From Patescibacteria group bacterium (GTDB lineage Bacteria; Patescibacteriota; Minisyncoccia; Phycocordibacterales; CAIZLB01), in NCBI GenBank assembly GCA_040384445.1, contig JAZKJG010000004.1:1-55107 (forward strand): a DNA stretch of 55,107 bases, in the 5' to 3' direction. The stretch's first letter is position 1. Each line of letters opens with the position of its first letter. The position numbers and the translations under genes are program-made. Shown one piece after another: positions 1-55,107 of this stretch. The notes below the pieces were generated by a model. It saw only the letters and a program-made list of their open reading frames with translations, had not been told where the DNA came from and did no database searches.

Positions 1-64
1 GGTGACAGGGAGTAAGTCGTAACAAGGCACGGCTAGCGGAAGCTGGTCGTGGATTTATTCAAGT
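1..64 (+). rRNA. rrs: 16S rRNA, 3'-terminal fragment (gene runs off left edge; mature 3' end approximate)
   Basis: AAGTCGTAACAAGG (universal 1492 region) lies at 14-27. The helix-45 stem-loop ACGGCTAGC/GGAA/GCTGGTCGT lies at 29-50. It is followed by GGATTTATTC where GGATCACCTCCTT is expected. Confidence 0.85.
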
Positions 65-344
65 GAAAATTGTTTTGTGTCCTCTTTAGGGAGGGTACAA
101 AATTTATAGCGGTCGTTCGTATTATTTATTTAATACACAAGATGTTGTCTTGTCGCATACAACACGAAGAAGTTCGTAAAACTTTGACACCTGGCAAAGA
201 CCGGTCAAACAGAACAAAATAATAGATTCAATTCTATAATCTGTAACAAGCGTATATCTGATGTACATTAATTCAATAGATTATTATATATAGAAAAGTA
301 AAAATAATAATTTTATATTTTATATATAATAATGTAAGTTAAAT

Positions 345-387
345 AAAAACTATCACAAATTAATGTGATAGTTTTTATTTTTTTTAA
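345..387 (+). terminator. Rho-independent terminator downstream of 16S
   Basis: AAAAACTATCACA (345-357) pairs with TGTGATAGTTTTT (364-376) around a 6-nt loop, followed by a T-run. Confidence 0.6.
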
Positions 388-425
388 TTTCAAGAATAAT
401 AAAGTTATACACAAAATTTAAATAG

Positions 426-452
426 TTGAAAGTTAAAATATTATGATATACT
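426..452 (+). promoter_or_regulatory. Candidate promoter of the surface-protein operon
   Basis: TTGAAA lies at 426-431 and an extended -10 TGaTATACT at 444-452. The spacer is only 15 nt. This would give a ~55-nt leader to the ATG at 514. Confidence 0.3.
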
Positions 453-513
453 AATTAGTATAAATTAGTAATTTAATATATTAATAATTTTTTAAAATAA
501 CACTACATACATA

Positions 514-1212
514 ATGAAAAATATAAACAGTACTTTACTAAGAAAATTAAACATCGGCTTCGCTTCAATAATGACTTTCTCGATTGCAGCAGGTCTGGGT
601 ACAACACAGTATGCACTTGCGTCTGCAACATCTAACTTCACTCAGGTTATCAATGCAGGTACTCTTACTGCAGACATTGTGGATGGATCATATGTAACTG
701 TTGCAAGTCCATCTTTTGCACTAGGAGCTGCGACATTTAGTTTTGCATGTCAAACAACAACTGGAACTTTTGGTACTGCATCACAGCAGATATATGTTAA
801 GAACCCAGATGCTGCTGATAACGGATGGACACTCAGTATTGCTGCCTCTGCTCCAACTGATGTGTGGGATGGTGCCGCATCAGACTTTGATTTTAATGAC
901 CCAACAACAGCAGGATGTACTGATGGAGGTGATGCCGACATCCTAAAAGGACAAATGACAATTAACCCTGCTGTAGGAACGCTTGCAGGTGGTGCTAGTT
1001 CAGCATCAACTACAAACATCACTAAAGGTTCATCAGGGGCATTTAACCAAGGAACTCTCGATGCGATCACAATTCTAACTGGAGCTTCTGGATCAAGTGA
1101 TATTGGAGACTGGACACTACAAGGTGTATCTATCAGTCAAACTATCCCTGCAGAACAAGCGGCAGCTTCTGACTATGATATTAGTCTAGTGCTAACAGCA
1201 ACAGCAAGTTAA
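514..1212 (+). CDS. Small secreted WxL-like surface protein (232 aa)
   Basis: The N-terminus is hydrophobic and signal-like. The motifs AGTLTADIV, IYVKNPDAADNGWTLSI and IGDWTLQG follow the WxL-domain pattern (G.L..., V.V.D....GW.L.V). It is clearly paralogous to the C-terminal ~185 aa of the 2409..6725 protein. Confidence 0.8.
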   Translation: MKNINSTLLRKLNIGFASIMTFSIAAGLGTTQYALASATSNFTQVINAGTLTADIVDGSYVTVASPSFALGAATFSFACQTTTGTFGTASQQIYVKNPDAADNGWTLSIAASAPTDVWDGAASDFDFNDPTTAGCTDGGDADILKGQMTINPAVGTLAGGASSASTTNITKGSSGAFNQGTLDAITILTGASGSSDIGDWTLQGVSISQTIPAEQAAASDYDISLVLTATAS

Positions 1213-1234
1213 TCACTGTCTGCTGAGAAATAAT

Positions 1235-2383
1235 ATGAAAAAAATAAATGTCTGCAAAATTCCGGTGAAAATATTTTTTATCGCATTAACACTTGTCTAT
1301 ACCTCTGTACCCTATGCTTCTCAAGCTGTAGAGTATGGAGGTTTTGGTGGTAAACCTGCATATCCTCGGGAAGATAACTCTAGAACAGAATCAATTTTTA
1401 TTCACACACTAGCGCCTGGTGCTGTGCAGAAAGATGGAGTACTTGTTGTTAACAACAGTACAACTCCAAAAACAGTGATCATATATGGGGCCGACTCAAC
1501 ACCTTCAACTGGAGGTGCGTTTGCGTGTAAGCAGTTCAGTGAGGAAAAAAAAGATGTAGGTACATGGATACAGTTGGCGAAATCAGAAATAACATTACAA
1601 CCCGGTACAAATCAAATTGTTCCTTTTACAATCTCTGTGCCTGAAAACGTTGGAGTTGGTGAGCATAATGGTTGTATTCTGATTCAAGAAAAAAAAGCAA
1701 AGGTTGAAGGTCAGGCTGGAGCAAGTATATCAATTCGTACAGGATTGAGAGTTGCTATTAAGGTTCCTGGAGAAATTGTTAGAAAACTTGAAGTCGTAGG
1801 GTTTACAGTTGATTCTGATAAGGGAAATTTTTTACTTAAACCTGCTGTAAAAAATACTGGTAATGTGTCTATTGATGCAAATATAATTGTTGAAACAAAA
1901 AATATTTTTGGTTCTGTTATTTTCTCACATGATGGTCAGTACCCAATATTACGAGGTGAAACTTCAGACTGGAACTTTGAACTCAAGAAGCCTTTCTGGG
2001 GAGGTTTATACCACTCTTCATTTGTAGTTGAGTACGATGAAAGTGTTGAGGCTGATGTTGGAGTAAAGACAGATAAAACACTCGTTCGAGTTGAGGGTGA
2101 TCCTACATGGTTCTTCAGTTTTCCAACATTCTCAGCATTGGTGATTGAGATTCTTATCCTTCTTGCGCTTGTATCTGGAGTATTTTTCTTAAAGTTATCA
2201 AAGAAACGAAAAAAGTGGATTAAGAAAACTTGGGTTTGGTATGAAATTAGTGCTGGAGATGATATTCAGACACTATCTAAGCATTTTGATGTGTCTTGGA
2301 AACTATTGGCTAAGGTGAATAAATTACAACCCCCATATGCACTTAAACAAGGAAATAAAATCAAAGTACCGGCGGGTAAATAA
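1235..2383 (+). CDS. DUF916/DUF3324-like (WxL-interacting type) surface protein with C-terminal TM anchor and LysM tail
   Basis: It has a signal peptide. The ectodomain pattern LAPGAVQKDGVLVVNNS...ITLQPGTNQIVPFTISVPENVGVGEHNGCILIQ fits this family. A TM segment (FSALVIEILILLALVSGVFFL) is followed by KKRKKWIKK. A LysM motif (YEISAGDDIQTLSKHFDVSWKLLAKVNKL...GNKIKVP) forms the tail. Confidence 0.8.
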   Translation: MKKINVCKIPVKIFFIALTLVYTSVPYASQAVEYGGFGGKPAYPREDNSRTESIFIHTLAPGAVQKDGVLVVNNSTTPKTVIIYGADSTPSTGGAFACKQFSEEKKDVGTWIQLAKSEITLQPGTNQIVPFTISVPENVGVGEHNGCILIQEKKAKVEGQAGASISIRTGLRVAIKVPGEIVRKLEVVGFTVDSDKGNFLLKPAVKNTGNVSIDANIIVETKNIFGSVIFSHDGQYPILRGETSDWNFELKKPFWGGLYHSSFVVEYDESVEADVGVKTDKTLVRVEGDPTWFFSFPTFSALVIEILILLALVSGVFFLKLSKKRKKWIKKTWVWYEISAGDDIQTLSKHFDVSWKLLAKVNKLQPPYALKQGNKIKVPAGK

Positions 2384-2408
2384 TAAAAAATTACCGTCGA
2401 AACCATAC

Positions 2409-5400
2409 ATGTATATACAATTGTGTCAGAGTCTTTTTAAGAAGTCTTCTGCGCTGCTTGTTATTTTCATGTTGATTTTTAGTCCTTGGATAGAGGTGTT
2501 GGATAATCCATATTTTTCAACAGTTGTAAAAAAGGCACACGCAGATACGACAGGTGCAAAGTTTCCAACTTTAGGTGAATCTGTGTCTGAGACTCCGTGG
2601 TTATCTGATACATGGGTAACACCAACTAACATATACAGTGATAACGCTGCTACTGCAAACATTATTGCTGCATCTTTTGACTCACCAGATCAATCATATG
2701 TTTTAAAGGCTACCGGATTTGACTTTAGTGCTATCCCAGATGGTTCCACTATACAAGGTATAACTATTAGCACCAATGCCTTTTATAGAACAGGACAAGG
2801 ATCTGGATCTCTAAGTCTTTGTCAGCTACTAAACACTTCAAAAGCAAAAGTGGGAACAAACTTGTGTGCCACACCCACGGCTTTAACGACAACAAACACC
2901 ACTATTATCACGAAGGGAGGTGCTACAGAATTGTGGGGCAATGGACTTACTGCAGCATGGGTAAAAAGTGCTAACTTTGGAGTCGCGCTCGGAGTAACTG
3001 CAACTGCAGCAAACGCCGATGTTGATATTGACTACGTAACGGTTGAAGTCCACTATACTCCTCCTGCAAATGTAACCATTGCATCTTCTCAAGGACAGCC
3101 AGCATATGTAGTTGCTTCTTCAAACGATGTGATTCTGGGTGCATCTTCAATTGTTGGATCGTTGGGTGGAGGTCATAGTGTGACTGCTATAACTTTAAAA
3201 GAAAACTCAGGAACCATAGATGCAAGTTCAGAAATGTCTGATATTGAACTGTGGCTTTCAGATGATCAGACGTGGGATGTAGGTGATAATCAGTTGGGTA
3301 CAACTCAAAATTTTTCAGGAGTCGATGGAGAAATAACATTCACTGAAACTTTTAGTATTGCTACCACACCGAAGTATTTGATTGTACGAGGAGATATTAA
3401 TTCCTTTGCTGATATTGGTGATACTGCTGAAATACAGGTTAAAACTATTACAACAGGAGATGCTGTCTTTGGTGCACCGCTTGAAATATCTGGAACTACA
3501 GCAGTTTGGAATAAGAAAAAAGAATTAGTTTTTGATAACTCAGGTCAAGCAGAAAACCTGACAGATTTCCCTGTGCTTGTAAAATTGGATACGAGCAGAA
3601 TTACATATGGAGATGTTGGTAAAGTTGATGGTACTGATTTGCGATTTGTGGATTCAGACACTTTAGCAGAGTTGGATTATGAAATAGAAAAATGGGATTC
3701 AGCAGGAAATAGTTATATATGGGTTAAAGTTCCTCAGATAGATGCCTCATCTTCAGGAGATAGTATTTGGATGTTTTATGGAAATGCAGGGGCTTCTGAT
3801 GGGCAAGATGTGACTAACGTATGGTCAAATAACTACCAGGCGGTGTATCATTTTAATGAAACAACAGGGTCATACCTCGACTCTACTGCAAACAATCATG
3901 ACAGTGATGTTGTAAGTGTTACATCTCGAGCCGCATCTAAGTTCGGAAATGCGGTTCTGTTTGATGGGGTGGATGACTATATTACGATTCCTGACTCTAC
4001 AGGTTTTGATATTACCAACTGGACAATTACTTCATGGATAAATAAAAATGGAACAGGAATTGCTGCAAACACTGGATCTGGAGGAGACTTTTTTTACCCT
4101 CTTGTAACAAAAGGAATGGCAGAAGCTGAATCAGATGCTGCGGATATTACCTTCATGACAGGTATTGATAGTGATTATAATAAAATGGGTGTTGATTTTG
4201 AAAACAATACAGGAGGAGGTAACAACCCTCTTCCTGTAACTCCTGCCAGTCAAGGTACAACTGTTTCTAACGGTACCTGGTATCAATATGATGCACGAGT
4301 TGATACTACTGGAAATACGTTGAAAGTATACATGAATGGTGTCGAGGATTCTTCTAGAACAATTACGGATACTCCTAACCAGGCAAACTCAGTGAAGGTG
4401 GCTATTGGAGCAGGTTCTAAAACAACTGGAATTCCTGCTCTCCCGGCAGATAGAGGAGCATTCAATGGATATGTTGATGAGGTTATAATTTCAAGAGTAA
4501 CAAGATCTGCAGCTTGGATCAAAGCATCATATTTATCGATGAATGATACATTCATCACATGGCCAGGAGCACTTACGATGTCGAGTGCTGCAAATCAAAC
4601 ATTTACTGAAAATGACGCACCTACATCTATTTCTACTATAAGTATTACTGATGGAGCAACACCTTCAGTGACTGCGGCAAACAACATTAGAATACGAATT
4701 CCTTCAGGTTTTAACATGACATGGGATACGAGTGATACTACAGCAAATATAGGTGGTACAAACTGGAGTAAAACCGGAGCAGGTTCATCAGGTGCAACGG
4801 TGACTGTAACATATGAGGATAGTGGAAGAACTGTTGTTGTTCCTGTTACAAGTGATTTTACTGCAAGTAATGACATCACTGTGTATGGACTTTCTTTCTC
4901 AAACTTTACGGATGTATCATCGGCTGATAATTTGGAGCTTGTACTTTCGGGTGCAGGTGGTGGAGTGTCTGTATATGACACAAAAACAATAGAAGTTTTG
5001 TTTCAACCGTATCAGATACTCGTAGCTCTTGCGTCAAAAATAAATCAAGTATTTAACACAGGTGATGCAACGACACTTATTTCTCCATTGACAATGACTG
5101 CATCAACAACTAATCCTATTACGACAGGTGATGACATTCGTATAAAAATCCCTTCAGGTTTTAATATGACCTGGGATGATGCAGATACTGCAGCCACTGT
5201 TAAAGTTGCACCCACATTATCTGAGTACACAAGTGTGTATCTGACAAATGATTTGCCTACAATTACATTGGATAACTCAGGGGTAGCATACAATGCTTTA
5301 ACAGATACACTATTTTTTATCACCAATGGTACTCCAACCATATATGAATTTCAAAAAGATGGAACGTACCTAAGAACAATTACAATGTCAGGATTTATCG

Positions 5401-6725
5401 ATACTGAAGGTATTGAGTGGATGTATGGAACAACATATGCAGTGACAGAAGAAAGAAGTCCGTACGATATTATTACATTCACCATGAACGCATCAACTAC
5501 TTCAGTTACAAAAGCTGGAGGTACATCAGTTAATCCTGGTATATCTGTGGGTACAAACTTGGGTATGGAGGGAATTACGTATGACGCAGCAAACAACTGG
5601 TTTTATGTAGTGGTTGAAAAACAAGCAAATAGCTCAGACGGAGGACGTGTGTTTAAGGTGCTACTTGATGGAACAGCGACAGAATTAACTGCACTTGGAG
5701 CATCGTTATCAGCTATGGGTATTACTGATCTTGCAGACTTGTCTTATAGTGAGGTTTCAGGACATTTGTTTCTGCTGTCACAGGAAAATAGTGTGATTAT
5801 TGAAGCAAAGACAGATGGTACTATTATTAGAACAAGGGCAGTGGATACGGGGACGTTTGCACAGGTTGAAGGGTTGGATTTTTCACCGGATGGTAACTCA
5901 ATGTTTATTGCTGGTGAGGTGGATGACTATCAACATTTGACTAGACCTTCAAACAAGGTGTCTCAAACTGTGAGTTATGAAAACTCAAATAAAACGCTCG
6001 TTGTAAATGTAACAAACAACTTTACAGGTGAAGAGGTTGTTTCTATTGCAGATTTGTCATTTGAAAACTTTAGTGCAGGATCTGCTGCAGACAATCTAGA
6101 GTTGGTTCTTGCAGGAGTTGGTGGTGCAACTGTTGCATATGATAGTAAAACTATTGAAATTAATGGCCTTTTGGTTTCTGCTGATATTGTTGATGCGAGC
6201 TTCGTTTCAGTTTCAAATCCTGCTATTGCAATGAGTACAACAACGTTTGGTTTTTCGTGTCAAACAATTACAGGTACATTTGGTACACCTACGCAGCAAA
6301 TTTATGTAAACAATAATGACAGTGCGGATGCGGGATGGACACTAACATTAGCAGCACTTTCAAACACTGATGTGTGGGATAGTTCAGGGATAGATTATGA
6401 TTTTAACGACGCAACGGGTTCGGGATGTACTGATGGTGGTGATGCAGATACACTTGGTGGGCAGATGACTGTTAATCCTGTTGCGGGTACTTTGAGTGTA
6501 GGTGAATGTGTTGGATGTACAGCTAGTGAAATTACAAAAGGATCTTCTGCCGCATATAGTCAGGGTTCTGTAGACACTATCACTCTTTTGTCTGCAGCCG
6601 CAGCGTCAGATGATATAGGAGACTGGACTCTACAGGGTATAGCAATTTCACAAAAAATCCCTGCAAACCAACCAGCTGCAAGTGATTACAATGTAGATAT
6701 GGTTCTTACTGTAACTGCAAACTAA
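2409..6725 (+). CDS. Giant multidomain surface protein (1438 aa): DUF2341 + LamG + repeated module + SdiA-regulated/YjiK-like beta-propeller + C-terminal WxL-like domain
   Basis: The ORF is open from 2337. I prefer the ATG at 2409, just before the TM/signal segment ALLVIFMLIFSPW. The DUF2341 pattern is FPVLVKLD...DLRFVDSD...LDYEIEKWD...IWVKVPQI...IWMFYGN. The LamG pattern is LFDGVDDYITIP...GYVDEVIISRV. The C-terminal 185 aa are paralogous to 514..1212. Confidence 0.9.
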   Translation: MYIQLCQSLFKKSSALLVIFMLIFSPWIEVLDNPYFSTVVKKAHADTTGAKFPTLGESVSETPWLSDTWVTPTNIYSDNAATANIIAASFDSPDQSYVLKATGFDFSAIPDGSTIQGITISTNAFYRTGQGSGSLSLCQLLNTSKAKVGTNLCATPTALTTTNTTIITKGGATELWGNGLTAAWVKSANFGVALGVTATAANADVDIDYVTVEVHYTPPANVTIASSQGQPAYVVASSNDVILGASSIVGSLGGGHSVTAITLKENSGTIDASSEMSDIELWLSDDQTWDVGDNQLGTTQNFSGVDGEITFTETFSIATTPKYLIVRGDINSFADIGDTAEIQVKTITTGDAVFGAPLEISGTTAVWNKKKELVFDNSGQAENLTDFPVLVKLDTSRITYGDVGKVDGTDLRFVDSDTLAELDYEIEKWDSAGNSYIWVKVPQIDASSSGDSIWMFYGNAGASDGQDVTNVWSNNYQAVYHFNETTGSYLDSTANNHDSDVVSVTSRAASKFGNAVLFDGVDDYITIPDSTGFDITNWTITSWINKNGTGIAANTGSGGDFFYPLVTKGMAEAESDAADITFMTGIDSDYNKMGVDFENNTGGGNNPLPVTPASQGTTVSNGTWYQYDARVDTTGNTLKVYMNGVEDSSRTITDTPNQANSVKVAIGAGSKTTGIPALPADRGAFNGYVDEVIISRVTRSAAWIKASYLSMNDTFITWPGALTMSSAANQTFTENDAPTSISTISITDGATPSVTAANNIRIRIPSGFNMTWDTSDTTANIGGTNWSKTGAGSSGATVTVTYEDSGRTVVVPVTSDFTASNDITVYGLSFSNFTDVSSADNLELVLSGAGGGVSVYDTKTIEVLFQPYQILVALASKINQVFNTGDATTLISPLTMTASTTNPITTGDDIRIKIPSGFNMTWDDADTAATVKVAPTLSEYTSVYLTNDLPTITLDNSGVAYNALTDTLFFITNGTPTIYEFQKDGTYLRTITMSGFIDTEGIEWMYGTTYAVTEERSPYDIITFTMNASTTSVTKAGGTSVNPGISVGTNLGMEGITYDAANNWFYVVVEKQANSSDGGRVFKVLLDGTATELTALGASLSAMGITDLADLSYSEVSGHLFLLSQENSVIIEAKTDGTIIRTRAVDTGTFAQVEGLDFSPDGNSMFIAGEVDDYQHLTRPSNKVSQTVSYENSNKTLVVNVTNNFTGEEVVSIADLSFENFSAGSAADNLELVLAGVGGATVAYDSKTIEINGLLVSADIVDASFVSVSNPAIAMSTTTFGFSCQTITGTFGTPTQQIYVNNNDSADAGWTLTLAALSNTDVWDSSGIDYDFNDATGSGCTDGGDADTLGGQMTVNPVAGTLSVGECVGCTASEITKGSSAAYSQGSVDTITLLSAAAASDDIGDWTLQGIAISQKIPANQPAASDYNVDMVLTVTAN

Positions 6726-6735
6726 AATTATTGAC

Positions 6736-7782
6736 ATGAATGTATTTCAGTATTTTAAAAAAATAAACTACCGTCGAGGTATAATCGCATGCAGCCTTGC
6801 ATGCGTGCTTATTTTTGCTGAAAATATAACCGCTGCACAGGGTACAGCAAACCTAAGGATTCAAATTTTTCCGGTGCCTCAGTGTTCTGATCTTGGGGAT
6901 AATGATGCTGATGGAGATATTGATTTTCCAGATGATATGAATTGTTCTTCGCCTACAGACAATACTGAAAGTGATTATGTGGAGGTTCCTGGGACGACAA
7001 CCCTCGTCATGAGTGGTAGTAATTATACTGTAGGGTCGGCACCTTTGCCTGTAACCCTGGTTATATTTTCAGGAGTAGCCTACCCAAATAGTACAGTTAC
7101 ATTTCTTAAAGATGCTCAAGTGGTGGCGGTAACTACTGCGGCCGATGATGGAAGTTTTCAATTGAGCCTAACAGGGTTTTCTCATGGTAATTATAATTTT
7201 GGTACGTATTCGGTGGATGCTGATGGTAACAGATCGTCATTGTTTACGATTCCAGTTAGTGTAGTTTCTGGAGCTACAACAAATGTAAGTGATATCTTTA
7301 TAGCACCAACTCTTGTAATAGATAAAACCCAGTTAAAAAAAGGTGATTCACTCACTATTTCTGGTCAAAGTGCGCCTCTATCTAATATTTCAATTTCGAT
7401 AAAATCAGATAGTGAAATTATTCTCAACACAAAGTCTGATAGTCTCGGAATGTATAGCTATCAAATAAATACGTCATTATTAAGAGAGGGCTTATATTCT
7501 ATTACTACTAAAATAATTAGAGAAGATCAGTTGATGAGCTTGATATCTCGGCAAGTTGAATTTGCACTGGGTACAAAAAGTTCTTTATTGAATGCTGTAG
7601 ATAACAGTGAATGTCCATCAAGAATTGATAGGAATGGTGATTGTCGTGTAAACATTATTGATTTCTTTATTAAGTTGTACTGGTACCAGAAAGCTTCTCC
7701 TCCTAAAGCTGTAGATTTAAACAATGATGGAAAAGTTGATCTCACAGACTTTTCAATCATGGCTTTTTATTGGACTGGTTAA
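6736..7782 (+). CDS. Secreted protein with Ig-like repeats and a C-terminal type I dockerin
   Basis: It has a signal peptide. Two canonical Ca-binding dockerin segments are present: DRNGDCRVNIIDF and DLNNDGKVDLTDF (about 7624-7775). Confidence 0.85.
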   Translation: MNVFQYFKKINYRRGIIACSLACVLIFAENITAAQGTANLRIQIFPVPQCSDLGDNDADGDIDFPDDMNCSSPTDNTESDYVEVPGTTTLVMSGSNYTVGSAPLPVTLVIFSGVAYPNSTVTFLKDAQVVAVTTAADDGSFQLSLTGFSHGNYNFGTYSVDADGNRSSLFTIPVSVVSGATTNVSDIFIAPTLVIDKTQLKKGDSLTISGQSAPLSNISISIKSDSEIILNTKSDSLGMYSYQINTSLLREGLYSITTKIIREDQLMSLISRQVEFALGTKSSLLNAVDNSECPSRIDRNGDCRVNIIDFFIKLYWYQKASPPKAVDLNNDGKVDLTDFSIMAFYWTG

Positions 7783-7795
7783 TTTACAAAAAATC

Positions 7796-8668
7796 ATGAT
7801 AAAAAATATCAACATAAAATCCTTTTTAATAATATTATTTGCTTGTGCTGTAACATGTCCTAGTACTGTGTTTTCTGCACAGGTATTATTTGATATTAGA
7901 GATAAAGATGTTCATACCAACGAGTTGTTTGAAATGGGTATATTTTTAAATACAAAGCAGGCAGACTTGAATGCAATTGAAGCGGAGATTACTTTTCCGT
8001 CTGACTTGGTTGAAATTAAAAAAATCAATACAAGCAGTTCAATTGTTAATTTATGGATTGAACAACCAAAACACATAAATAATAAAATTACACTCTCTGG
8101 AATTATGCCGGGAGGATATAATGGTGAACAAGGATTAATCGGAACAGTAACATTCTTGGCTAAGAAGGATGGGATGGGAAGTGTGTTCTTTAATAAAATT
8201 AAAGTACTACAAAATGATGGAAAAGGTACAGCAGCAATCGTAACACCATCAAGTGTGAGCTTTAATGTAAAGAAATTAATCGGAACACCTGCACCTCTTG
8301 AGGTTATACAGGATCGTGAACCTCCAGAAGATTTCACTCCATATTTAGTGCAGGACCAAGATATTTTTGAAGGGAAGTGGTTTCTTGTTTTTACAACCCA
8401 GGATAAAAGTTCAGGCATAAAACACTATGAAGTTAAGGAGGGTAAAAACCCATTCGTTATTGCAACTAGTCCATATCTTTTAGAAAACCAAGACTTGCAT
8501 AAAAATATTACAATAAAGGCTGTGGATGAAAATGGAAACGAAAGGGTTGTAATAATTCCTGCAGAAGAATCTGTAAATATGCGTACCTTATCTATAATTG
8601 GTATCCTTACTGTAGTCTTTGTTCTGTACAGAATACTGTGGAAAAAATACAAAAAACCTATTATATAG
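7796..8668 (+). CDS. Cohesin-domain protein with C-terminal TM anchor (290 aa)
   Basis: The ATG at 7796 precedes a signal peptide (the ORF-track start at 7724 overlaps the upstream gene). The cohesin-like pattern is FEMGIFLNTKQADLNAIEAEITFPSDLVEI...IVNLWIEQP...ITLSGIMPGGYNGEQGLIGTVTFLAKKDG. The TM segment LSIIGILTVVFVLYRILW is followed by KKYKK. Confidence 0.8.
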   Translation: MIKNINIKSFLIILFACAVTCPSTVFSAQVLFDIRDKDVHTNELFEMGIFLNTKQADLNAIEAEITFPSDLVEIKKINTSSSIVNLWIEQPKHINNKITLSGIMPGGYNGEQGLIGTVTFLAKKDGMGSVFFNKIKVLQNDGKGTAAIVTPSSVSFNVKKLIGTPAPLEVIQDREPPEDFTPYLVQDQDIFEGKWFLVFTTQDKSSGIKHYEVKEGKNPFVIATSPYLLENQDLHKNITIKAVDENGNERVVIIPAEESVNMRTLSIIGILTVVFVLYRILWKKYKKPII

Positions 8669-8703
8669 CTATAAACTAAAGGGAGGTTGAACATGGGGAT
8701 TTA

Positions 8704-8731
8704 TTGCATATTTGACCTTTTTATGTATAAT
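8704..8731 (+). promoter_or_regulatory. Candidate promoter for tRNA-Ile
   Basis: TTGCAT lies at 8704-8709, then a 16-nt spacer, then TATAAT at 8726-8731. Confidence 0.4.
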
Positions 8732-8864
8732 GTACTTATTATTTTATAGATTTCTGTAATGTAATTTATCGATGTTTGGCATCGATGAGTTGGAAGCGGA
8801 CGCCCCCGCAGGAAATTTGTTTCTACAAATTTCCGAGGATAAAGTCCGGTGACAACGAAGAGAT

Positions 8865-8937
8865 GCGCGCGTAGCTCAGTTGGTAGAGCGCTCGACTGAT
8901 ACTCGAAAGGTCCCAAGTTCGAATCTTGGCGCGCGCA
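8865..8937 (+). tRNA. tRNA-Ile (anticodon GAT)
   Basis: A cloverleaf folds by hand: acceptor GCGCGCG/CGCGCGC, D arm GCTC-AGTTGGTA-GAGC, anticodon loop CTGATAC (GAT at 8898-8900), and T arm CCAAG-TTCGAAT-CTTGG. No CCA is encoded. Confidence 0.9.
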
Positions 8938-8947
8938 CAAAAAAATA

Positions 8948-13029: not shown

Positions 13030-14184
13030 TTACGATGTGAATCCAGCACCTGCTACCCACCAAAATATTGCAAATCCTTGTACGGTTGCAAATAGAATAT
13101 AAACCATATTTCGCACGTCTTCATTTTTAATACACACTGCAAGAGCAATAGGAATCACGAATAAACTCGCAATGTATCTACTTGATCCTTCAATTACACC
13201 GGTAAGTGGCGTGAACAATATATATGATAATCCAAAGAGAGTATATGTGATAGGTATTTTTCTAGATGCCAAGCCAAGTGTTGCGAGCCCAAAGACGATA
13301 AATGAAGATGTCCAAAGGGAATATGGGTTCATACTTATAATATTTTTGATAAGTACGGTAAATGGCTCTGCCCAAATGTGTCTAAAGTGAGTTTGCTGCA
13401 TATGGATATATGCGAGAGGATCACCTGACACACTGTACATATGCAAACAATATAGAATAGGTAGCGCAAAAAGAGTTCCTGTATACAACAAGAGTTTTGA
13501 AAGTGATACTCTATGTCTATGTTGAAACAGAAAAAAGATAATCGGGATACAAAGAAAGATTCCAAATGTTTTCGTCAGGCATGCGATTCCAAAAAACAAA
13601 CATGCTAAAAATATTTTTTCAATTCTAACACAGTAAAATACCAAGATGCTGAGTAGTAGAAATAAAGATTCAGGATAGATTGCGGAAAGATAATATGAAG
13701 TTGGAAATAGAAGAGTATAGAGTAATACTTCTTTTTCTTGAACACCATGTTTTAGTTTTGGTTCAGATCGTATGAGCTGTACTAGATAATATAACGCGAG
13801 AAGTAAGAATACATTCGATAAGAAAATTCCAGCTACATGTGTGTTTCCAGAAAAAATCGCATGTGAAAAGATATACATCAGAAGAGGGTACATAGGTAGA
13901 AAACCTTTATTATCTTCTTTTGCGTATGGATATGGTTGAGCAGAGTATCCGTCTTCAGCAATACTAATATATCGTTTCGTGTCCCAAACAGACCATATAC
14001 TCACTAAAGGATTATCAGGTTGAATATATGTATAGGTATGGTCACCTTGATAAAAGTGCCAAATCGGCCTATCTCCGTGTATGTTCTTGGTTTGTAAATG
14101 GGCCACTAAAACAGTTGAAAACAGTCCGAGAAGAAGAATGAGGAGTCTGTTGAGTATAAAGTAGGAAAACAAAGGGGTTTTCAT
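13030..14184 (-). CDS. Polytopic membrane glycosyltransferase, PIG-V/GT-C-like
   Basis: It has about 10 predicted TM segments. The first loop motif WSVWDTKRYISIAEDGYS...GFLPMYPLL resembles the WD..hY..IA..GY...AFFPLyP signature of PIG-V-type mannosyltransferases. Confidence 0.6.
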   Translation of the reverse strand: MKTPLFSYFILNRLLILLLGLFSTVLVAHLQTKNIHGDRPIWHFYQGDHTYTYIQPDNPLVSIWSVWDTKRYISIAEDGYSAQPYPYAKEDNKGFLPMYPLLMYIFSHAIFSGNTHVAGIFLSNVFLLLALYYLVQLIRSEPKLKHGVQEKEVLLYTLLFPTSYYLSAIYPESLFLLLSILVFYCVRIEKIFLACLFFGIACLTKTFGIFLCIPIIFFLFQHRHRVSLSKLLLYTGTLFALPILYCLHMYSVSGDPLAYIHMQQTHFRHIWAEPFTVLIKNIISMNPYSLWTSSFIVFGLATLGLASRKIPITYTLFGLSYILFTPLTGVIEGSSRYIASLFVIPIALAVCIKNEDVRNMVYILFATVQGFAIFWWVAGAGFTS

Positions 14185-14218
14185 GCATGTATTCTAACAT
14201 AAGCCAAGGAAGGGTGTA

Positions 14219-16628: not shown

Positions 16629-17621
16629 ATGGAAGACCTAAACCTCGACGAATTAAAAAAAGATTTTAAAACAAGCTTTTTCGCGCTGGAAATAGAACGA
16701 CTTCTGAAAGAAAAAGATGAACTGGTTCAGATGGCGCAAGACCCGGACATGAAAGAGATGGCAGAAATGGATATGGTGAACATTCAAGATCAGATTGATG
16801 GAAATGTTTCTAAACTCCAAGATATCATGAAGGAAGAAGAAGTGGCTGATCAATATCCAAATGAAATTGTTCTGGAAATTCGTGCAGGAGTAGGGGGAGA
16901 CGAGGCTGCCCTTTTTGCTGCAGATCTTTCTGAAATGTATAAGATTTTTGCTACTGAGAGAGGGTGGAGTTTTTCTACAGTTGATATTTCAGAAAACGGA
17001 ATCGGAGGATATAAGGAGGCAACATATGAAGTGCGAGGTTTTGAAGTATATAGATATTTTAAATATGAAATTGGAGTGCATAGAATTCAGCGAATTCCTT
17101 CTACTGAAAAGTCTGGTAGAATTCACACATCAACCGCAGTAGTAGCAGTACTTCCTATTCGAAAGAAAGTGAAGTTTGAAATTAATCCAGCGGACCTCGA
17201 AATGGAATTTTCAAGATCAGGGGGAGCTGGGGGACAAAACGTAAACAAAGTAGAAACGGCTGTGCGACTTATTCACAAGCCAACAGGTATTGATGTTCGA
17301 TGTACATCAGAGCGGAGTCAGTTGAAGAACCGAGAAAAAGCTTTTTCAATTCTTCAGGCAAAACTGGCACTAAAGAAAGAGGAAGAGGATGCTGCGAAGT
17401 TTTCAGGACTTAAAAAATCACAGCTCGGAACTGGAGATCGATCTGAGAAGATTCGAACATACAACGTGTTGCAGGATCGAATTACAGATCACCGGTTGAA
17501 ACAGTCATGGCACGGTATTCAAAATATGTTCCAAGGTCAGATTGAGAAGATGATTACGACGGTTGTTGAGTTTTTTGAAAATGGTGGAGAGGTTGCGGAA
17601 GGTGATGATTCTGATGAGTAA
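16629..17621 (+). CDS. prfA: Peptide chain release factor 1
   Basis: It has the GGQ motif ([16 protein letters not shown]) and the RF1-type P-x-T tripeptide ([14 protein letters not shown]), not the SPF of RF2. Confidence 0.9.
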
Positions 17622-21913: not shown

Positions 21914-21950
21914 TTTACATTTACAAAGATAACGTATAAAATTGCACCAT

Positions 21951-22484
21951 ATGATAACATCAGAACAAATTAAAGCACTTCGAGACAAAACAGGAATTTC
22001 TGTTATGGCTTGCAAGAAAGCTCTTGAAGAAGCAAACGGAGACGAAGAAAAAGCTCTTGAGGTTCTAAAAGAAAAAAGTGCAGAACAAGCAGCTAAGAAA
22101 GGAGATAGAGAGTTTGGTGCAGGGATCATCGAAGCATACGTTCACTCAAACGGTCTAACTGGATCAATGATTGAATTAGCATGTGAGACAGATTTCGTAT
22201 CAAACAACGCAGAGTTCCGATCAATGGCTAAAGATATTGCAATGCAAGTTGTAGCATTTTCACCAGCAGTTTTGAAGGAATCTGATGTTACAGATGAGAT
22301 TAAAGCTAAGGCTAAAGAAGACAATGGAGGAGAAGATGCAGATGTAGCCATGCTTTCACTTTTGACTCAGCCATTTATCAAAAATGGTGACTTAACAATC
22401 CAAGGAGTGCTCGACGCTGCTATGCAGAAGTTCGGAGAACGAATTGAGGTGCTTAAGTTTTCACGATTTGAAATCGGGAAGTAG
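21951..22484 (+). CDS. tsf: Elongation factor Ts (short form, 177 aa)
   Basis: It has the N-terminal UBA-like IKALRDKTGISVMACKKALEEANGDEEKALEVLKEK and the core IEAYVHSNG...MIELACETDFVSNN. Confidence 0.9.
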   Translation: MITSEQIKALRDKTGISVMACKKALEEANGDEEKALEVLKEKSAEQAAKKGDREFGAGIIEAYVHSNGLTGSMIELACETDFVSNNAEFRSMAKDIAMQVVAFSPAVLKESDVTDEIKAKAKEDNGGEDADVAMLSLLTQPFIKNGDLTIQGVLDAAMQKFGERIEVLKFSRFEIGK

Positions 22485-25639: not shown

Positions 25640-25701
25640 AAACTACATATTAAAAAACCCATACTAGTCTCCGCGAGTATGGGTTTTTTAATATGTAGTT
25701 T
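25640..25701. terminator. Very long perfect inverted repeat / bidirectional terminator downstream of eno
   Basis: AACTACATATTAAAAAACCCATAC (25641-25664) is the exact reverse complement of GTATGGGTTTTTTAATATGTAGTT (25677-25700). The loop is 12 nt. Confidence 0.6.
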
Positions 25702-30693: not shown

Positions 30694-30713
30694 GGGTATG
30701 ATAGTATGATTTC

Positions 30714-31520
30714 ATGAACAAATTCCTCAGCATTGTGTCGTTTGCTTGGCAACGTGCTTTGACGTTTCGATTTACTATCTTTATGTATAGATTTGGTGAA
30801 ATAGCTGAGTCTGTTGTTTTGTGTATTATGTGGATTGCGATTTATGCAGGAAGTGGAGACGGTGTGTCTTTGATCAAGGGTTTTACAGTTCAAGAAATGG
30901 TGACATATATTTTCATAGGAAATATTCTTACTGCATTTACGAGAAGTTATTCCACCGCAACGATTGCAAGAGATATTTTTGATGGAACCCTTTCAATGTC
31001 TCTGGTAAAACCTATTTCGTACATACGATATGTTTTCTATGATAGATTTGGTGCAACACTACTCGTATTACTAACTGCAATAGTTGGACAATTAATTGCT
31101 TCGGTTTTTTTCTTAGATTACATAATTTTTAATCCAGATCTTATGTATCTGCTTGTAATTGTTGCAATGCTCTTCCTTGCGTATTTAACAGAATTTTTAT
31201 TGAATACCATTATTGGAACAGTTGCATTCTGGGTAGATGATGTAGACGGACTGTTTTCAATGACAGATCGAGTTCGAAGATTTTTTGCAGGAGGATATTT
31301 CCCTCTAAGCATTCTTCCTACTGGGCTCGCATTTGTAGCAACTTTGCTTCCGTTTGCGTATACATTCTATGTTCCTGCACAACTATACCTGCAAAAGATC
31401 TCCATTAAAGAAGGAATTATTGGGCTTGGAATACAAATAGTTTGGATAGCTTTGTTGTATATGCTACTAAAGTTTATTTGGAACCGCGGAATTAGAAAAT
31501 ATGAAGGAGTAGGACTATAA
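30714..31520 (+). CDS. ABC-2-type transporter permease (DUF990-like)
   Basis: It has six hydrophobic segments and an N-terminal pattern (FLSIVSFAWQRALTFRFTIFMYRF) typical of this permease family. It is adjacent to the ATPase gene. Confidence 0.7.
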   Translation: MNKFLSIVSFAWQRALTFRFTIFMYRFGEIAESVVLCIMWIAIYAGSGDGVSLIKGFTVQEMVTYIFIGNILTAFTRSYSTATIARDIFDGTLSMSLVKPISYIRYVFYDRFGATLLVLLTAIVGQLIASVFFLDYIIFNPDLMYLLVIVAMLFLAYLTEFLLNTIIGTVAFWVDDVDGLFSMTDRVRRFFAGGYFPLSILPTGLAFVATLLPFAYTFYVPAQLYLQKISIKEGIIGLGIQIVWIALLYMLLKFIWNRGIRKYEGVGL

Positions 31521-34149: not shown

Positions 34150-36222
34150 TTATACAAGTAGCACAACTGGAATAATAATCGGTCTCTTTGCAGTCTCTTG
34201 GAAAATAAATTTACCAAGCGTATCTGCTGTAAGATCTTTTATGTAATCAATATTTGGTGGTCGCATCTGATACGCAGCTCTCTCGATTGTTGTTCGAACA
34301 AGTGTTCGGATCTCTCGAAGAAGCTCTTGAGATTCTCGTAGATATACTGAACCTCGAGAAATAATGTCAGGGGATTTAATAAGTCGTCCTGTCATTGGAT
34401 TCATCATTGCAACAACAACGAAGATTCCGTCTTCTGCAAGAATCTGTCGATCTCGTAGTACAACGTCTTGAATATCTCCAACAGTAAATCCATCCACCAT
34501 CACTACATTGTCAGGAGCTTTAACTGGAAGTTTTACAAACTTTGTACCTCCTTCTTGAATTTCAAGAATGTTACAGTCGTCAGGAACAATAATGTTTTCT
34601 TTTGGAATACCAAGATTGTTTGCGAGCTCAGCATGGAGCTTCAAGTGGTAGTGGTTACCATGCATTGGCATGAAGAACTTTGGTCGAAGCTTTCTGTGTA
34701 GCCATTCGATCTCTCCTCGGTTTGCATGTCCTGTTGCGTGAATATAAACATCAGATGTTCGGTAGTGAATAATTCTAGCTCCTGAACGAGCAATGTTATC
34801 TTTCATTTTCTGAACAACTTTTTCATTTCCAGGAATAATAGAAGAAGAGAGTAGGATAGTGTCTTTCTCTGTGAGGATTACATACTTATGCTGTTTATTA
34901 GACATTCGCATAAGAGCTCCAAATTCATCTCCCTGAGCCCCTGTTGCAAGGACAACAATTTTGTCTGCTGCATGATGACTCATTTCTTGTGCTGATATAA
35001 AAGTACCTTTAGATACTTTAAGAAGTCCAGCTTGGATTAAAATCTCAACGTTGTTTTTCATACTTCGTCCTTCGATCACCAGTTTCTTTCCATATTTTTC
35101 ACAAGCCTCAACAACTTTTGCAATACGAAATGCGTGTGATGCAAACATACCCATAATCATTCGGCCTGACATGTTTTTTACAATCTCTGCAAGGTTTTCA
35201 TGTACAACACTTTCAGGTGTAGAAAATCCCGGGTTTTCAATGTTTGTAGATTCTCCTAAAAGTAGAAGAACATTTTTTCCATCGAACAATTTATAGTTAT
35301 CATCTTCCTCAGCGGTTGGAGTTCCATCTACGTGATCAAGTTTAAAGTCTCCAGGAGTTGTAATCCATCCGTGAGGTGTATCGATAATAATACCGAGTGA
35401 ATCGGGAATAGAGTGAGTAACTCCATAAAATTTTATAGAAGTATTTCCAATCTTAATTGATTCATTTCCTTCAACAATTTTAAAATCAAGCGCAGGAATA
35501 TGTGGGAATTCAGCTTGTCGCTTTTTAAGCATCAAGGCAGTTAGGTTTCGAGTATACACAGGTGGCATACCGATCTTCTCAATAACGTATGGAAGTGCGC
35601 CGATATGGTCCAAGTGTCCGTGTGTAATAATAATAGCTCGAACTTTATGTTTTCGTTCTTCGAGATATTTTGTGTTTGGTAAAATGTAATCAATACCTGG
35701 AGTTCCAGCTTCTTTAAACTTAAATCCGGCATCAATAACAATAATGTCATCTTTGTTTTCGATAACAGTCATGTTCATACCAATTTCTTCCACTCCTCCA
35801 AGAGGAATGATTCGATAGTTGTCTCCGAGTACTTCAGGAATTTCTTTCTGAGTTCCAGGCTTAGTTGCTGATGCAGAACCAATACTTGGTCGTGATCGAG
35901 GCATACTGTATCGTTTATTTGGTTTTCTATTTTTAGGTGTTGCTTGTTCTGTATGAATGGTGTCATTCATTTCAATTGCATCCTCATCAATCTCATCTCC
36001 AGTACCAAGAGGTCTTTTTACTGATTGTTGATTGTAAGGAGTGTGCGAGGCAGGTGCATGTGCACGAGCTGACGCGACTGGCTTTTTATGTCCAGTAAGT
36101 GGTCCGTTTGGACGCATTGGATCTGGAAGTTTAACCTTAGGGGCAGGAGAAGAAGCAGGTGCTTGATCTCCATGATATACCCGGAGAGGTTTCTTAGATC
36201 CGTTATCAAATTCTTTATTCAT
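34150..36222 (-). CDS. rnj: Ribonuclease J with ~130-aa basic Pro/Lys-rich N-terminal extension
   Basis: It has the metallo-beta-lactamase/beta-CASP pattern IIPLGGVEEIGMNMTVIE...VIDAGFKF...GIDYILPN...IIITHGHLDHIGALPY. Confidence 0.9.
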   Translation of the reverse strand: MNKEFDNGSKKPLRVYHGDQAPASSPAPKVKLPDPMRPNGPLTGHKKPVASARAHAPASHTPYNQQSVKRPLGTGDEIDEDAIEMNDTIHTEQATPKNRKPNKRYSMPRSRPSIGSASATKPGTQKEIPEVLGDNYRIIPLGGVEEIGMNMTVIENKDDIIVIDAGFKFKEAGTPGIDYILPNTKYLEERKHKVRAIIITHGHLDHIGALPYVIEKIGMPPVYTRNLTALMLKKRQAEFPHIPALDFKIVEGNESIKIGNTSIKFYGVTHSIPDSLGIIIDTPHGWITTPGDFKLDHVDGTPTAEEDDNYKLFDGKNVLLLLGESTNIENPGFSTPESVVHENLAEIVKNMSGRMIMGMFASHAFRIAKVVEACEKYGKKLVIEGRSMKNNVEILIQAGLLKVSKGTFISAQEMSHHAADKIVVLATGAQGDEFGALMRMSNKQHKYVILTEKDTILLSSSIIPGNEKVVQKMKDNIARSGARIIHYRTSDVYIHATGHANRGEIEWLHRKLRPKFFMPMHGNHYHLKLHAELANNLGIPKENIIVPDDCNILEIQEGGTKFVKLPVKAPDNVVMVDGFTVGDIQDVVLRDRQILAEDGIFVVVAMMNPMTGRLIKSPDIISRGSVYLRESQELLREIRTLVRTTIERAAYQMRPPNIDYIKDLTADTLGKFIFQETAKRPIIIPVVLLV

Positions 36223-41887: not shown

Positions 41888-41899
41888 TATACTCAGCTC

Positions 41900-42955
41900 A
41901 TGAATCACACTGTTTTTATTACTGGAGCGGCTGGATATATAGGAGCAATGCTTGCGCATCAATTTGCTGGTCGGGATGATGTACGACAGATTGTTTGTCT
42001 AGATAGAGCTGCGCGACCGCAACTTCTTGAGGGTGTGTCAAAAATTATTTGGATTCAAGCATTTACAAATGACTCAACGTGGCAAAAGAGTGTTGCCGAG
42101 TACAATCCAGATATTGTTATTCATACAGCGTGGCAGATTAGAGAATTTTATGGAAAAGGAAAAGAACAGTGGCAACTTAATGTGGTTGGATCAGATCATG
42201 TATTTGAATTTGCGTTTTCAACACCATCAGTAAAAAGACTGGTTCACTATTCGACAGTCGCATCATATTCTGCACTTCCTGAAAATACGTATGAACATGT
42301 GTTTACTGAAGATGTGCCATTTCGAGATAGTGAATACTTGTATGCGCAGGAAAAGAAAGTAACGGAAGAACATCTGAAGGCTCTCTATGAAAAGGCAAAA
42401 AAAGAAAGAGCTCCGTATCCTCAAATTTCAATTATCCGTCCTGCATCTATCACTGGACCAAAAGGAAGATATTCTCGGAAAAATTTTGGATTGCAATCTG
42501 CATTGTCAGGTCAATTGAAAGAAACATTTGCCCAACGACTTGTAACAAGATTGCTTGCGTGGATGCCAATAACTCCACTATGGTGTCGACAGTTTGTGCA
42601 TGAAGATGATATTGCAGATATTACTGCACTCTTGGCATTTGGTCCAACAAATCACGAATACGAAGCATTTAACGCATGTCCACTAGGTTCAATTGTAACT
42701 GGAAAAGATATGGCCCGGGCAGTAGGAAAAAATACCATTACACTTCATCCACAAATTATTCGAGCAGTATTTTTTGTTGCGTGGCATCTCTCACGTGGAG
42801 GTATCCCGACATCACCTGGGGGATGGAAAACATATTCATACCCAATTGTTGTGGATGGAACTAAGATTTCTAAAAAATATGGATATACATACAAAATGAG
42901 TCCCAAAGATGCATTTACAAAAAAAGAAGGACGATACATGCAATACGTAAAATAA
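41900..42955 (+). CDS. NAD-dependent epimerase/dehydratase (SDR family)
   Basis: It has the Rossmann motif VFITGAAGYIGAML and a YxxxK context (YAQEKK). Confidence 0.8.
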   Translation: MNHTVFITGAAGYIGAMLAHQFAGRDDVRQIVCLDRAARPQLLEGVSKIIWIQAFTNDSTWQKSVAEYNPDIVIHTAWQIREFYGKGKEQWQLNVVGSDHVFEFAFSTPSVKRLVHYSTVASYSALPENTYEHVFTEDVPFRDSEYLYAQEKKVTEEHLKALYEKAKKERAPYPQISIIRPASITGPKGRYSRKNFGLQSALSGQLKETFAQRLVTRLLAWMPITPLWCRQFVHEDDIADITALLAFGPTNHEYEAFNACPLGSIVTGKDMARAVGKNTITLHPQIIRAVFFVAWHLSRGGIPTSPGGWKTYSYPIVVDGTKISKKYGYTYKMSPKDAFTKKEGRYMQYVK

Positions 42956-50897: not shown

Positions 50898-50915
50898 GTA
50901 CGTGATATACTTTTA

Positions 50916-53900: not shown

Positions 53901-55107
53901 TGTTATCACCCTGCGAGTTTAGACTGGGGGTATGGTAGAGATGATGATCAGTTTAGGTGGACTATTGCTACAGCTATTGATCTTACAACTGACACCATTC
54001 AACTATCTGTTCTGTATCCATCTGGTGTTGCGTTACCTAACAGTGGAACGTATGCAGGTCTATGGCCACGTTCAGAAGGTTTGCAGGAATTAGATATGGA
54101 AGTTAACCTAACTTCAATTAGAAAAAATAACTATATTGTTGATGGTATTCCAGCCATGGAAGCTCTTTCAAATGGGGAAACTGTGCCTGACAGTTTGTAT
54201 TACGATAGTAAACCAGGTTGGTTCTATAATCTTAACTGGCCAGCCTTTGATCCTTCTCAACCGACTCCTACTGCTGCAAGTATTCCTGCCGGATATAGAT
54301 ATTTAAATAACGGTCTTGATCCTGGAGGAGTGGATTCAACACCTCCATCAATTTCATCAATCGCATCCTCGACATCAGTAACTAATGCGACTGTGACATG
54401 GACAACGAATGAATCTTCAAACTCACGCGTTGCATATGGAACAGTTTCTGGAACATACTCAACAACTGCAGTTTCTGGAACAATGACGACTTCTCATACA
54501 ACAAACTTAACTGGTCTAACTGCAAATACCGTGTATTACTTTGTTGTTTCGTCTACCGATTCATCTGGAAATGCGGCAACATCATCTGAACGAACTTTTC
54601 GTACAACCACTACAGACACCACCTCCCCAACCATTTCCTCAATTGCCTCATCAACCACAAACACAACAGCCACCATCACCTGGACCACAAACGAAACAGC
54701 CTCATCTTCTCTTGCATACGGAGTAACAACTGCATACGGTGCCACCTCATCATCTGGATCTTTCGTCACCTCTCACTCTGTATCACTTACTAGTTTGTCA
54801 CCATCTACCACCTACAACTATCGTATTCATGTATATGACTCATCAGGGAACCTGACGAGTTCATCAAACCTAACCTTCACCACAACATCAGGTGTAGACA
54901 CCACCGCCCCCCTCATCACCAACATCGCAACCTCCTCAACCGACACCACCTCAACCATCACCTGGACCTCAAACGAAAGTGCCTCATCATCACTCCTCTA
55001 CGGAACAACAACTAGTTACGGTGCCACCTCATCATCTGCAACACTCACAACCTCACACTCAGTTACACTCACATCACTCACTCCATCTACCACCTACAAC
55101 TACAAGA
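50916..55107 (+). CDS. Giant secreted protein, 5' partial (over 1397 aa, runs off the right edge): LamG + 3 FN3 + pectate-lyase-fold beta-helix + at least 3 FN3
   Basis: It is not in the ORF track. I translated every codon from the ATG at 50916 to 55106 by hand and found no stop. It has a signal peptide (KIFLLTIIFFIASTASA) and a LamG domain (FTGRIDEVRVYSRGLSGSDVTELY). The beta-helix N-cap is NADDTGATDASAAIQAAINAAGNGDVVYMPAGTYRL. The FN3 repeats carry WTTNE...Y..V.S.D..GN motifs. Confidence 0.9.

Follow-up and report, generated by a model that had tools for sequence, protein, structure and literature searches.

The stretch of DNA analysed here, 55,107 nucleotides long and hereafter called the window, has a G+C content of 38% and uses the standard genetic code. 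It opens with the last 54 nucleotides of a 16S rRNA gene, which are followed by a trailer and an intrinsic terminator. The window encodes surface proteins (WxL-interacting and LysM), a pilin, an EF-Ts of 180 aa and an RF1 of 330 aa, a CPR-like set of genes that, together with the helix-45 signature of the 16S rRNA, places the source organism in the Patescibacteria (CPR), as a member of the Parcubacteria/Paceibacteria type. RF1 (16629–17621) matches prfA models from about position 49 on and is thus N-terminally shortened; the short RF1 and the short EF-Ts (21942–22484) agree with the reduced protein sizes that have been described in CPR. The features of the 16S 3′ end and its trailer are as follows.

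1–54 (+), 3′ end of the 16S rRNA gene (Rfam SSU_rRNA_bacteria, model positions 1470–1523)
up to 27 (+), 3′ strand of h44 and the AAGTCGTAACAAGG (1492–1505) region
28–51 (+), helix 45, with a 10-bp stem and a 4-nt GGAA loop at 38–41; GGAT at 51–54
55–69 (+), replacement tail TTATTCAAGTGAAAA in the place of CACCUCCUUA, holding a mini-hairpin at 58–67
72–103 (+), pre-rRNA trailer hairpin predicted by folding, 12–14 bp with loop TTAG, including the sole nearby CCTC (81–84)
104–117 (+), trailer box ATTTATAGCGGTCGTT of the GTCGAT type, with GGTCGTT at 111–117, conserved in alignments A1 and A2
205–222 (+), TCAAACAGAACAAAATAA, predicted trailer strand of a leader/trailer (RNase III-type) processing stem
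341–388 (+), intrinsic terminator with a 17-pair stem and a T-run, closing the 16S transcription unit

Between the trailer and terminator and a tRNA-Ile(GAT) gene (8865–8938) lies a five-gene cluster for secreted or surface proteins (514–8668), whose members include a WxLIP_PGBD+LysM protein, a 1462-aa DUF2341/LamG/SdiA-regulated protein and a Big_6+dockerin protein. The next gene downstream of the 16S gene (514–1212) and the C-terminal region of the 1462-aa protein are paralogous, and positions 665–1166 and 6175–6679 share 66% DNA identity. In a related genome (L008, 4534–7630) the 16S gene, a tRNA gene homologous to the tRNA-Ile gene of the window and a transketolase gene are adjacent, so the cluster in the window looks like an 8.3-kb insertion in the rRNA–tRNA spacer. 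At the far end of the window, an ORF (50898–55106) whose N terminus resembles a signal peptide extends for 1403 aa or more and runs past the window end.

The 16S rRNA gene ends without an anti-Shine–Dalgarno sequence

In the textbook account, bacteria select start sites by pairing between the Shine–Dalgarno (SD) motif and the anti-SD, which ranks among the most conserved rRNA segments. In a covariance-model alignment, positions 1–64 of the window corresponded to positions 1470–1533 of the Rfam bacterial SSU model (38.6 bits, E = 9.4e-10), a score that falls under the gathering threshold only on account of the short length of 64 nt. Both helix 45 and the 1492 region agreed with the model and are intact, as the initial annotation had stated; its 9-bp stem at 29–50 with a GGAA loop was also recovered, but the closing C28–G51 pair had been left out, and the helix has 10 pairs (6 G-C and 2 G-U). 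Two canonical features of the 3′ minor domain, the GGAA-looped helix 45 and the AAGUCGUAACAAGG decoding-region strand, are thus present. In canonical bacterial 16S rRNA, two adjacent A residues of this loop are the dimethylation sites.

After GGAT the sequence reads TTATTCAAGTG, where CACCTCCTT is expected, and the final ten positions of the SSU model (cACCUCCUUu) align opposite UUAUUCAAGU. GAU is all that is left in the window of the GAUCACCUCC tail, to which Era and the SD motif bind in canonical 16S rRNA, and the CCUCC that is retained in a sequestered anti-SD of the Bacteroidota type was not found in the 54 nt of 16S rRNA that the window holds. CCTCC and CTCC are absent from positions 1–600, where the sole CCTC lies at 81. 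Scanning of the whole 55-kb window for GATCACCTCCTT, with up to 2 mismatches, gave one match (923–934, minus strand, within a coding region), whereas 3.9 were expected by chance; this lone, chance-level match shows that no displaced or separately encoded anti-SD is present in the window. The SSU alignment and the motif scans together bear out the earlier claim that the anti-SD is gone after GGAT and confirm that the 16S gene in the window lacks an anti-SD.

The same tail is found in independently assembled genomes

As the window holds just 54 nt of the gene, and rRNA genes are common contig break points, the tail might be the product of a chimeric assembly or belong to a pseudogene, with an intact anti-SD-bearing 16S gene (CACCUCCUU) elsewhere in the genome. 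The window and an independent Logan assembly (run SRR26324625) have the same sequence over positions 26–8937 (8.9 kb); that the Logan contig begins at window position 26 would also agree with a break in the gene. However, eleven relatives, each assembled separately, have the identical TTATTCARGTGAAA tail at the same junction, and a metagenome scan with CGTGGATTTATTCARGTGAAA recovered nine genuine 16S ends bearing this tail besides that of the window, from separate assemblies. The window-type tail is also carried by full-length 16S genes in L008 (1369 bits, model positions 1–1533) and L064, and anti-SD-less tails occur in two records labelled complete, OZ246399.1 (L018, 'chromosome: 1') and Minisyncoccus archaeiphilus (L036, 'complete genome'). 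Moreover, the conserved trailer and processing stem described below favour an expressed gene, and a published survey is concordant with a real loss (Tsurumaki et al., 2022). An artefact or a non-functional copy is, in our judgement, highly improbable.

Loss of the anti-SD is a trait of the lineage

The 16S 3′ ends of other genomes were collected with the pattern AAGTCGTAACAAGGCACGG-N5-GGAA-N6-CGTGGAT, in which the tail was left unconstrained; with one genome per GTDB species, at least 120 loci were found. Nearly all of the matches listed are labelled Patescibacteria, Paceibacterota or Parcubacteria, and they include Nomura-, Kaiser-, Yonath-, Taylor-, Lloyd- and Staskawiczbacteria as well as the cultured Minisyncoccus archaeiphilus PMX.108. 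Among the matches listed, CACCTCC was missing in 117 of the 120 species having this helix-45 form, a proportion that is not a phylum-wide frequency because the search pattern preselects the helix-45 form and hence the clade; the anti-SD was kept in three of the listed loci, one of which is L026. Three MAG records (L008, L042 and L072) are labelled Spiroplasmataceae, Gastranaerophilales and Gammaproteobacteria, respectively, yet have a Patescibacteria-type helix 45 on their 16S, which points to bin contamination or mislabelling.

The anti-SD-less tails are of two types. Type-A tails open with T (TAATTC, TAACTC, TTATTC, TATTTC or TCATTC), and the variants UAAUUC, UUAUUC, UCAUUC and UAUUUC share one upstream sequence (about 115 loci, 74 distinct combinations). 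Type-B tails keep GAUCA, followed by U/A-rich sequence (CATTTATTT, CAATTA); the tail of M. archaeiphilus is of this type and thus differs from that of the window. In the L084 tail (CACCACATTTT; CACCACATTTTATTTTTT) CACC is kept and UCC is lost, which makes it a possible intermediate linking the canonical tail to the type-B tails. By ungapped 16S 3′-end identity, a measure too crude for phylogeny, L026, L120 and L084 cluster together.

Absence of the anti-SD motif has been reported for a subgroup of Parcubacteria that overlaps the group lacking uL1 and in which SD helices are probably not formed, the motif detection rate in Parcubacteria being 48% (Tsurumaki et al., 2022, RNA 28:1041; PMC9297842). 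The L11/L1 gene cluster does not lie in the 55-kb window. In a wider survey, 128 of 20,648 taxids had no CCUCCU, and these were concentrated in some Bacteroidetes, Mycoplasma and Carsonella (Amin, 2018; PMC6107228). The initial annotation had called such a loss uncommon, which is true of bacteria overall but fails in this Patescibacteria lineage because the loss is its normal state, as published by Tsurumaki et al. (2022). A literature search combining anti-Shine–Dalgarno and Patescibacteria found nothing beyond that study. Loss of the anti-SD is thus a documented, lineage-wide trait, of which the window is a further example.

A mini-hairpin follows shortly after helix 45

The replacement tail contains a mini-hairpin at 58–67 (TTC-AAGT-GAA, general form N-T-C-N / N′-G-A-N′), which lies 2 nt past GGAT; in type-A tails in general, and in most Parcubacteria without an anti-SD, its four-position stem begins 2–3 nt past GGAT. 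In a set of 33 distinct tails of type A, 18 have A:T and 11 have C:G as the inner pair, while the outer pair takes one of the four Watson–Crick forms (T:A, C:G, G:C or A:T) in 26 and is T:G in two. A generic stem-length test of the mini-hairpin against shuffled sequences was not significant, and the element was accepted solely on this register-specific covariation. A different pairing proposed by RNAalifold, between tail positions 52–60 and the decoding-region strand GAGUAAGUC (10–18), showed no covariation across about 115 loci and was rejected.

The tail of L026, in which the anti-SD is kept, reads GGAT-CACCTCCTTTCT-ATTCAATTGAA, and in full GGAT-CACCTCCTTTCT-ATTCAATTGAAAT. Here the mini-hairpin stands directly after CCUCCUUUCU, 3′ of the canonical 16S end point. 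From this one anti-SD-retaining sequence and the homology of the two tails, we infer a precise deletion, in which 12 nt relative to L026 were replaced by 2 nt (about 10 nt net), as the simplest reading; it would have moved a conserved, covarying mini-hairpin of the trailer up against GGAU. Such a deletion predicts that the mature 3′ end lies within a few nucleotides of GGAU, although a longer mature tail that includes the mini-hairpin is conceivable. That the mini-hairpin is more than a spacer, serving either as a determinant of the 16S 3′ end or as a retained terminal helix in place of the anti-SD, is a tentative idea that we consider unlikely on balance.

The trailer carries the marks of precursor RNA

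Folding of a 63-nt segment (−14.4 kcal/mol) gave as its chief element a hairpin with 12 pairs at 73–84/91–102, or 14 when terminal G-U pairs are counted (72–85/90–103). The CCTC at 81–84 is buried in this hairpin, just as had been noted before. If mature 16S rRNA ran past position 84, this CCUC might act as a cryptic anti-SD, and the motif is common to the close relatives L061, L127 and L132. However, other relatives with the same tail have CACCTGA (L008, L064 and L125), CTATCTA (L126) or CCTATTT (L129) at this position, and GGCGCTT was found as well. Seven same-tail relatives fold a hairpin at the position of window 72–103 from different sequences, with compensatory changes (RNAalifold), implying that the pairing is kept while the motif varies. 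CCTCC occurred in only five of 121 trailers of 100 nt, three of which belong to canonical tails, against 3.1 expected from shuffles. A free CCUC downstream of the tail, the finding that would have overturned the initial annotation, is therefore not seen in the sequence. SD motifs are not enriched at gene starts (see below), and the whole region is enclosed by a leader/trailer processing stem; we give a cryptic anti-SD at 81–84 next to no credence.

The evidence for the processing stem comes from relatives, as the 16S leader belonging to the window lies outside it. The strand TCAAACAGAACAAAATAA (205–222) is conserved in five of five relatives in alignment A1 and is the reverse complement of a leader box in L064, TTCTTTTGTTCTGTTTGA, located 20–40 nt ahead of the 5′ end of the 16S gene; leader/trailer duplexes of 20–30 bp were found in about 30 loci. 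Because the trailer strand pairs with the leader, the CCTC would lie in spacer RNA within the processing stem. A second conserved element is the GTCGAT-type box: GTCG occurs in 100 of 121 trailers (L002–L121 and the window), whereas shuffles gave 30 on average and 44 at most, and the box is also present in all three loci that keep the anti-SD. A pairing partner of the box was looked for and not found, and positions 55–520 matched no known Rfam family at a permissive threshold. Taken together, the hairpin, the GTCGAT-type box, strand 205–222 and the terminator are probably precursor sequence that is processed away, which would make the CCTC at 81–84 incidental. A gene for RNase J, with beta-CASP and C-terminal domains (34150–36222, minus strand), encodes a candidate rRNA-processing nuclease of the lineage.

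A terminator scan returned two sites, against 0.1 expected. One is the strong terminator at 341–388; no 23S, 5S or other rRNA was found downstream of the 16S gene in the 55-kb window, and the gene is an unlinked, stand-alone transcription unit. The other site consists of 28–51 plus GATTTATTCA, which raises the possibility that helix 45 and the U-rich tail form an intrinsic terminator and that the 16S 3′ end is set by termination instead of processing. Some type-B tails agree with this idea in having long U-runs right behind GGAUCA, for example CATTTATTTTTTT and CATTTTTTTT; a terminator-like U-run a few nucleotides past the GC-rich helix 45 was seen in L018, L029, L082, L036 (Minisyncoccus) and others. 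However, conserved perfect leader/trailer stems lie 90–170 nt downstream in the same loci, which implies read-through transcripts. In the window, moreover, the U-run is broken and starts 3 nt past the stem, and the terminator at 341–388 is separate. An end defined by termination thus seems very improbable, and we retain the reading in which the 3′ end is made by processing.

Gene starts show no sign of SD usage

Start codons were taken from a naive longest-ORF caller; with the same caller, SD usage was still detected in 50 kb of E. coli K-12, where an SD core (GGAG, GAGG or AGGA) preceded 48% of starts, against 9% in the control. In the window, an SD core was found at −20 to −3 in three of 47 genes (6.4%), compared with 10.6% and 8.5% in two control regions and 11.4% in random 18-nt windows. 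The initial annotation had reported no SD motif at some 40 starts; this is essentially right, the one exception at −5 to −12 being the start at 25662 (minus strand), with GGAG at −10 to −7. The mean duplex energy with ACCUCCUUA was −0.9 kcal/mol upstream of window starts and −1.6 to −1.8 kcal/mol in controls, whereas in E. coli it was −4.9 kcal/mol against about −2.0 to −2.3 in controls.

The result was the same in related genomes. When 547 genes located beside anti-SD-less 16S genes of the 117 related species listed were pooled, the SD core was present upstream of 12.4% of starts, against 9.5% and 12.2% in controls, so that SD enrichment, which would have spoken against the initial annotation, was seen neither in the 47 genes of the window nor in these. 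The genes adjoining the three anti-SD-bearing loci number only 11, too few for an adequate control within the phylum, and E. coli served as the positive control. The window encodes RF1 and not RF2, and the programmed frameshift of RF2 is thus unusable as a test of anti-SD use. These data support the view that initiation in this organism probably does not proceed by SD:anti-SD pairing. It has been found previously that organisms without CCUCCU are generally without SD motifs (Amin, 2018; PMC6107228). Most CPR are reported to lack Era, the protein that binds GAUCACCUCC (PMC10582724, PMC12641178), and such a loss would fit the missing tail.

The start context is A-rich and does not match the new tail

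An alternative to outright loss is that the SD has been re-coded, the replacement tail (GGAUUUAUUC) acting as a new AU-rich anti-SD that pairs with AAUAAA-like mRNA leaders. The top enriched k-mers at −20 to −1 were AATAA, AAATAA and AATAAA, which are complementary to UUUAUU and peak at −12 to −6, and a 5-mer complementary to the tail was found at −20 to −1 in 49% of genes, compared with 32–37% in controls. However, the k-mers were equally enriched in lineages with UAAUUC, UAACUC or UCAUUC tails, and a matrix of tail type against complementary 6-mer had no diagonal. The duplex energy with the organism's own tail was −2.95 kcal/mol at starts, weaker than the −3.9 in controls. In addition, the k-mers overlap −10 boxes as well as the TAA stops of preceding genes, pairing through A-U pairs alone is weak, and no variant SD/anti-SD pair was found among 128 organisms of this kind (Amin, 2018; PMC6107228). 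With neither tail-type-specific enrichment nor an energy signal, an alternative SD matching the tail was rejected, and a re-coded SD appears very improbable.

What the starts do share is a sequence context and, in part, a promoter position. Positions −11 to −2 are A-rich and G-poor, AAAA peaks at −6, and −1 is usually a pyrimidine; this context would mark the starts in place of SD pairing. The hexamer TANNNT stood at exactly −12 to −7 in 49 of 374 pooled ATG genes (background 11.4 per position, z 9.9), and in six of 37 genes of the window (background 1.5, Poisson p 0.004). The TG of an extended −10 element accompanied it in 23 of these 49 genes but in only 22 of the 325 others, a 7-fold enrichment, and the −10 signature was present in 14–19% of genes with an upstream gap. 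A hexamer at −12 to −7 has the geometry for transcription from the A of the ATG, so the mRNAs concerned would be leaderless. The position of the promoter therefore suggests that about 15% of genes are leaderless. Examples in the window are as follows.

30699–30716 (+), predicted leaderless start TGaTAGTAT, an extended −10 with hexamer 30702–30707, 6 nt, then ATG at 30714
14182–14199 (−), predicted leaderless start TGtTAGAAT, with hexamer 14196–14191, 6 nt, then ATG at 14184
41888–41902 (+), −10-like TATACT at −12 to −7 of the ATG at 41900, directly 3′ of the stop codon of the upstream gene

No description of leaderless mRNAs in CPR was found in the literature consulted.

Discussion

The observations are best brought together by a functional 16S rRNA whose anti-SD was deleted at the level of the lineage, with SD-independent starts and a trailer that is processed away. 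Judged on the sequence comparisons as a whole, we consider this explanation highly probable. Because the loss itself is already published, the window adds just an example and anatomical detail; the additions are modest and consist of the trailer anatomy, the deletion scenario, the lack of a re-coded SD and the leaderless promoter signature.

Deletion of the anti-SD across a very large environmental radiation would mean that bacteria can live wholly on SD-independent initiation. There are also practical consequences, as gene callers that score ribosome-binding sites will misplace starts in these genomes and tools that annotate 16S 3′ ends will mis-trim such genes. Should the mini-hairpin indeed define the 3′ end or take the place of the anti-SD, then its combination with leaderless mRNAs and Era loss would give these environmental bacteria of free-living size a mitochondria-like initiation apparatus. 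The cultured M. archaeiphilus makes both the mature 3′ end and start-codon finding by the 30S subunit approachable by experiment.

Among known systems, Bacteroidota reportedly retain an anti-SD that is sequestered and use an A-rich, Kozak-like start context. They resemble the window in SD-independent initiation and in an A-rich, G-poor stretch just upstream of the start, but mostly keep CCUCC in their rRNA, whereas the lineage of the window has lost the sequence itself. Mycobacterium, Streptomyces and Deinococcus are rich in leaderless mRNAs, with a −10 box about 7 nt upstream of the ATG start. Unlike the lineage of the window, these bacteria keep a canonical anti-SD and use the SD for leadered genes.

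The small-subunit rRNA of mammalian mitochondria has no anti-SD after h45 (PMC10582724). Animal mitochondrial 12S rRNA, together with leaderless mRNAs, likewise works without the GAUCACCUCC contact, although the likeness is one of analogy only: mitochondria keep the Era homologue ERAL1 whereas most CPR are without Era, and the leaderless signature found here covers about 15% of genes. Anti-SD-less 16S rRNA is also known from Chryseobacterium, Elizabethkingia, Riemerella, Blattabacterium, some Mycoplasma and Candidatus Carsonella, in which SD motifs are absent too (PMC6107228; Lim et al., 2012). Those are independent losses in other phyla, affecting a few genera or endosymbionts, in contrast to the very large environmental radiation considered here. 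The closest parallel is the Parcubacteria subgroup of Tsurumaki et al. (2022), which like the window belongs to the CPR/Patescibacteria and has lost CCUCCU from the 16S 3′ end after helix 45; that survey gave the detection rate and the overlap with uL1 loss only, to which the present analysis adds the tails, the mini-hairpin, the SD statistics and the leaderless signatures.
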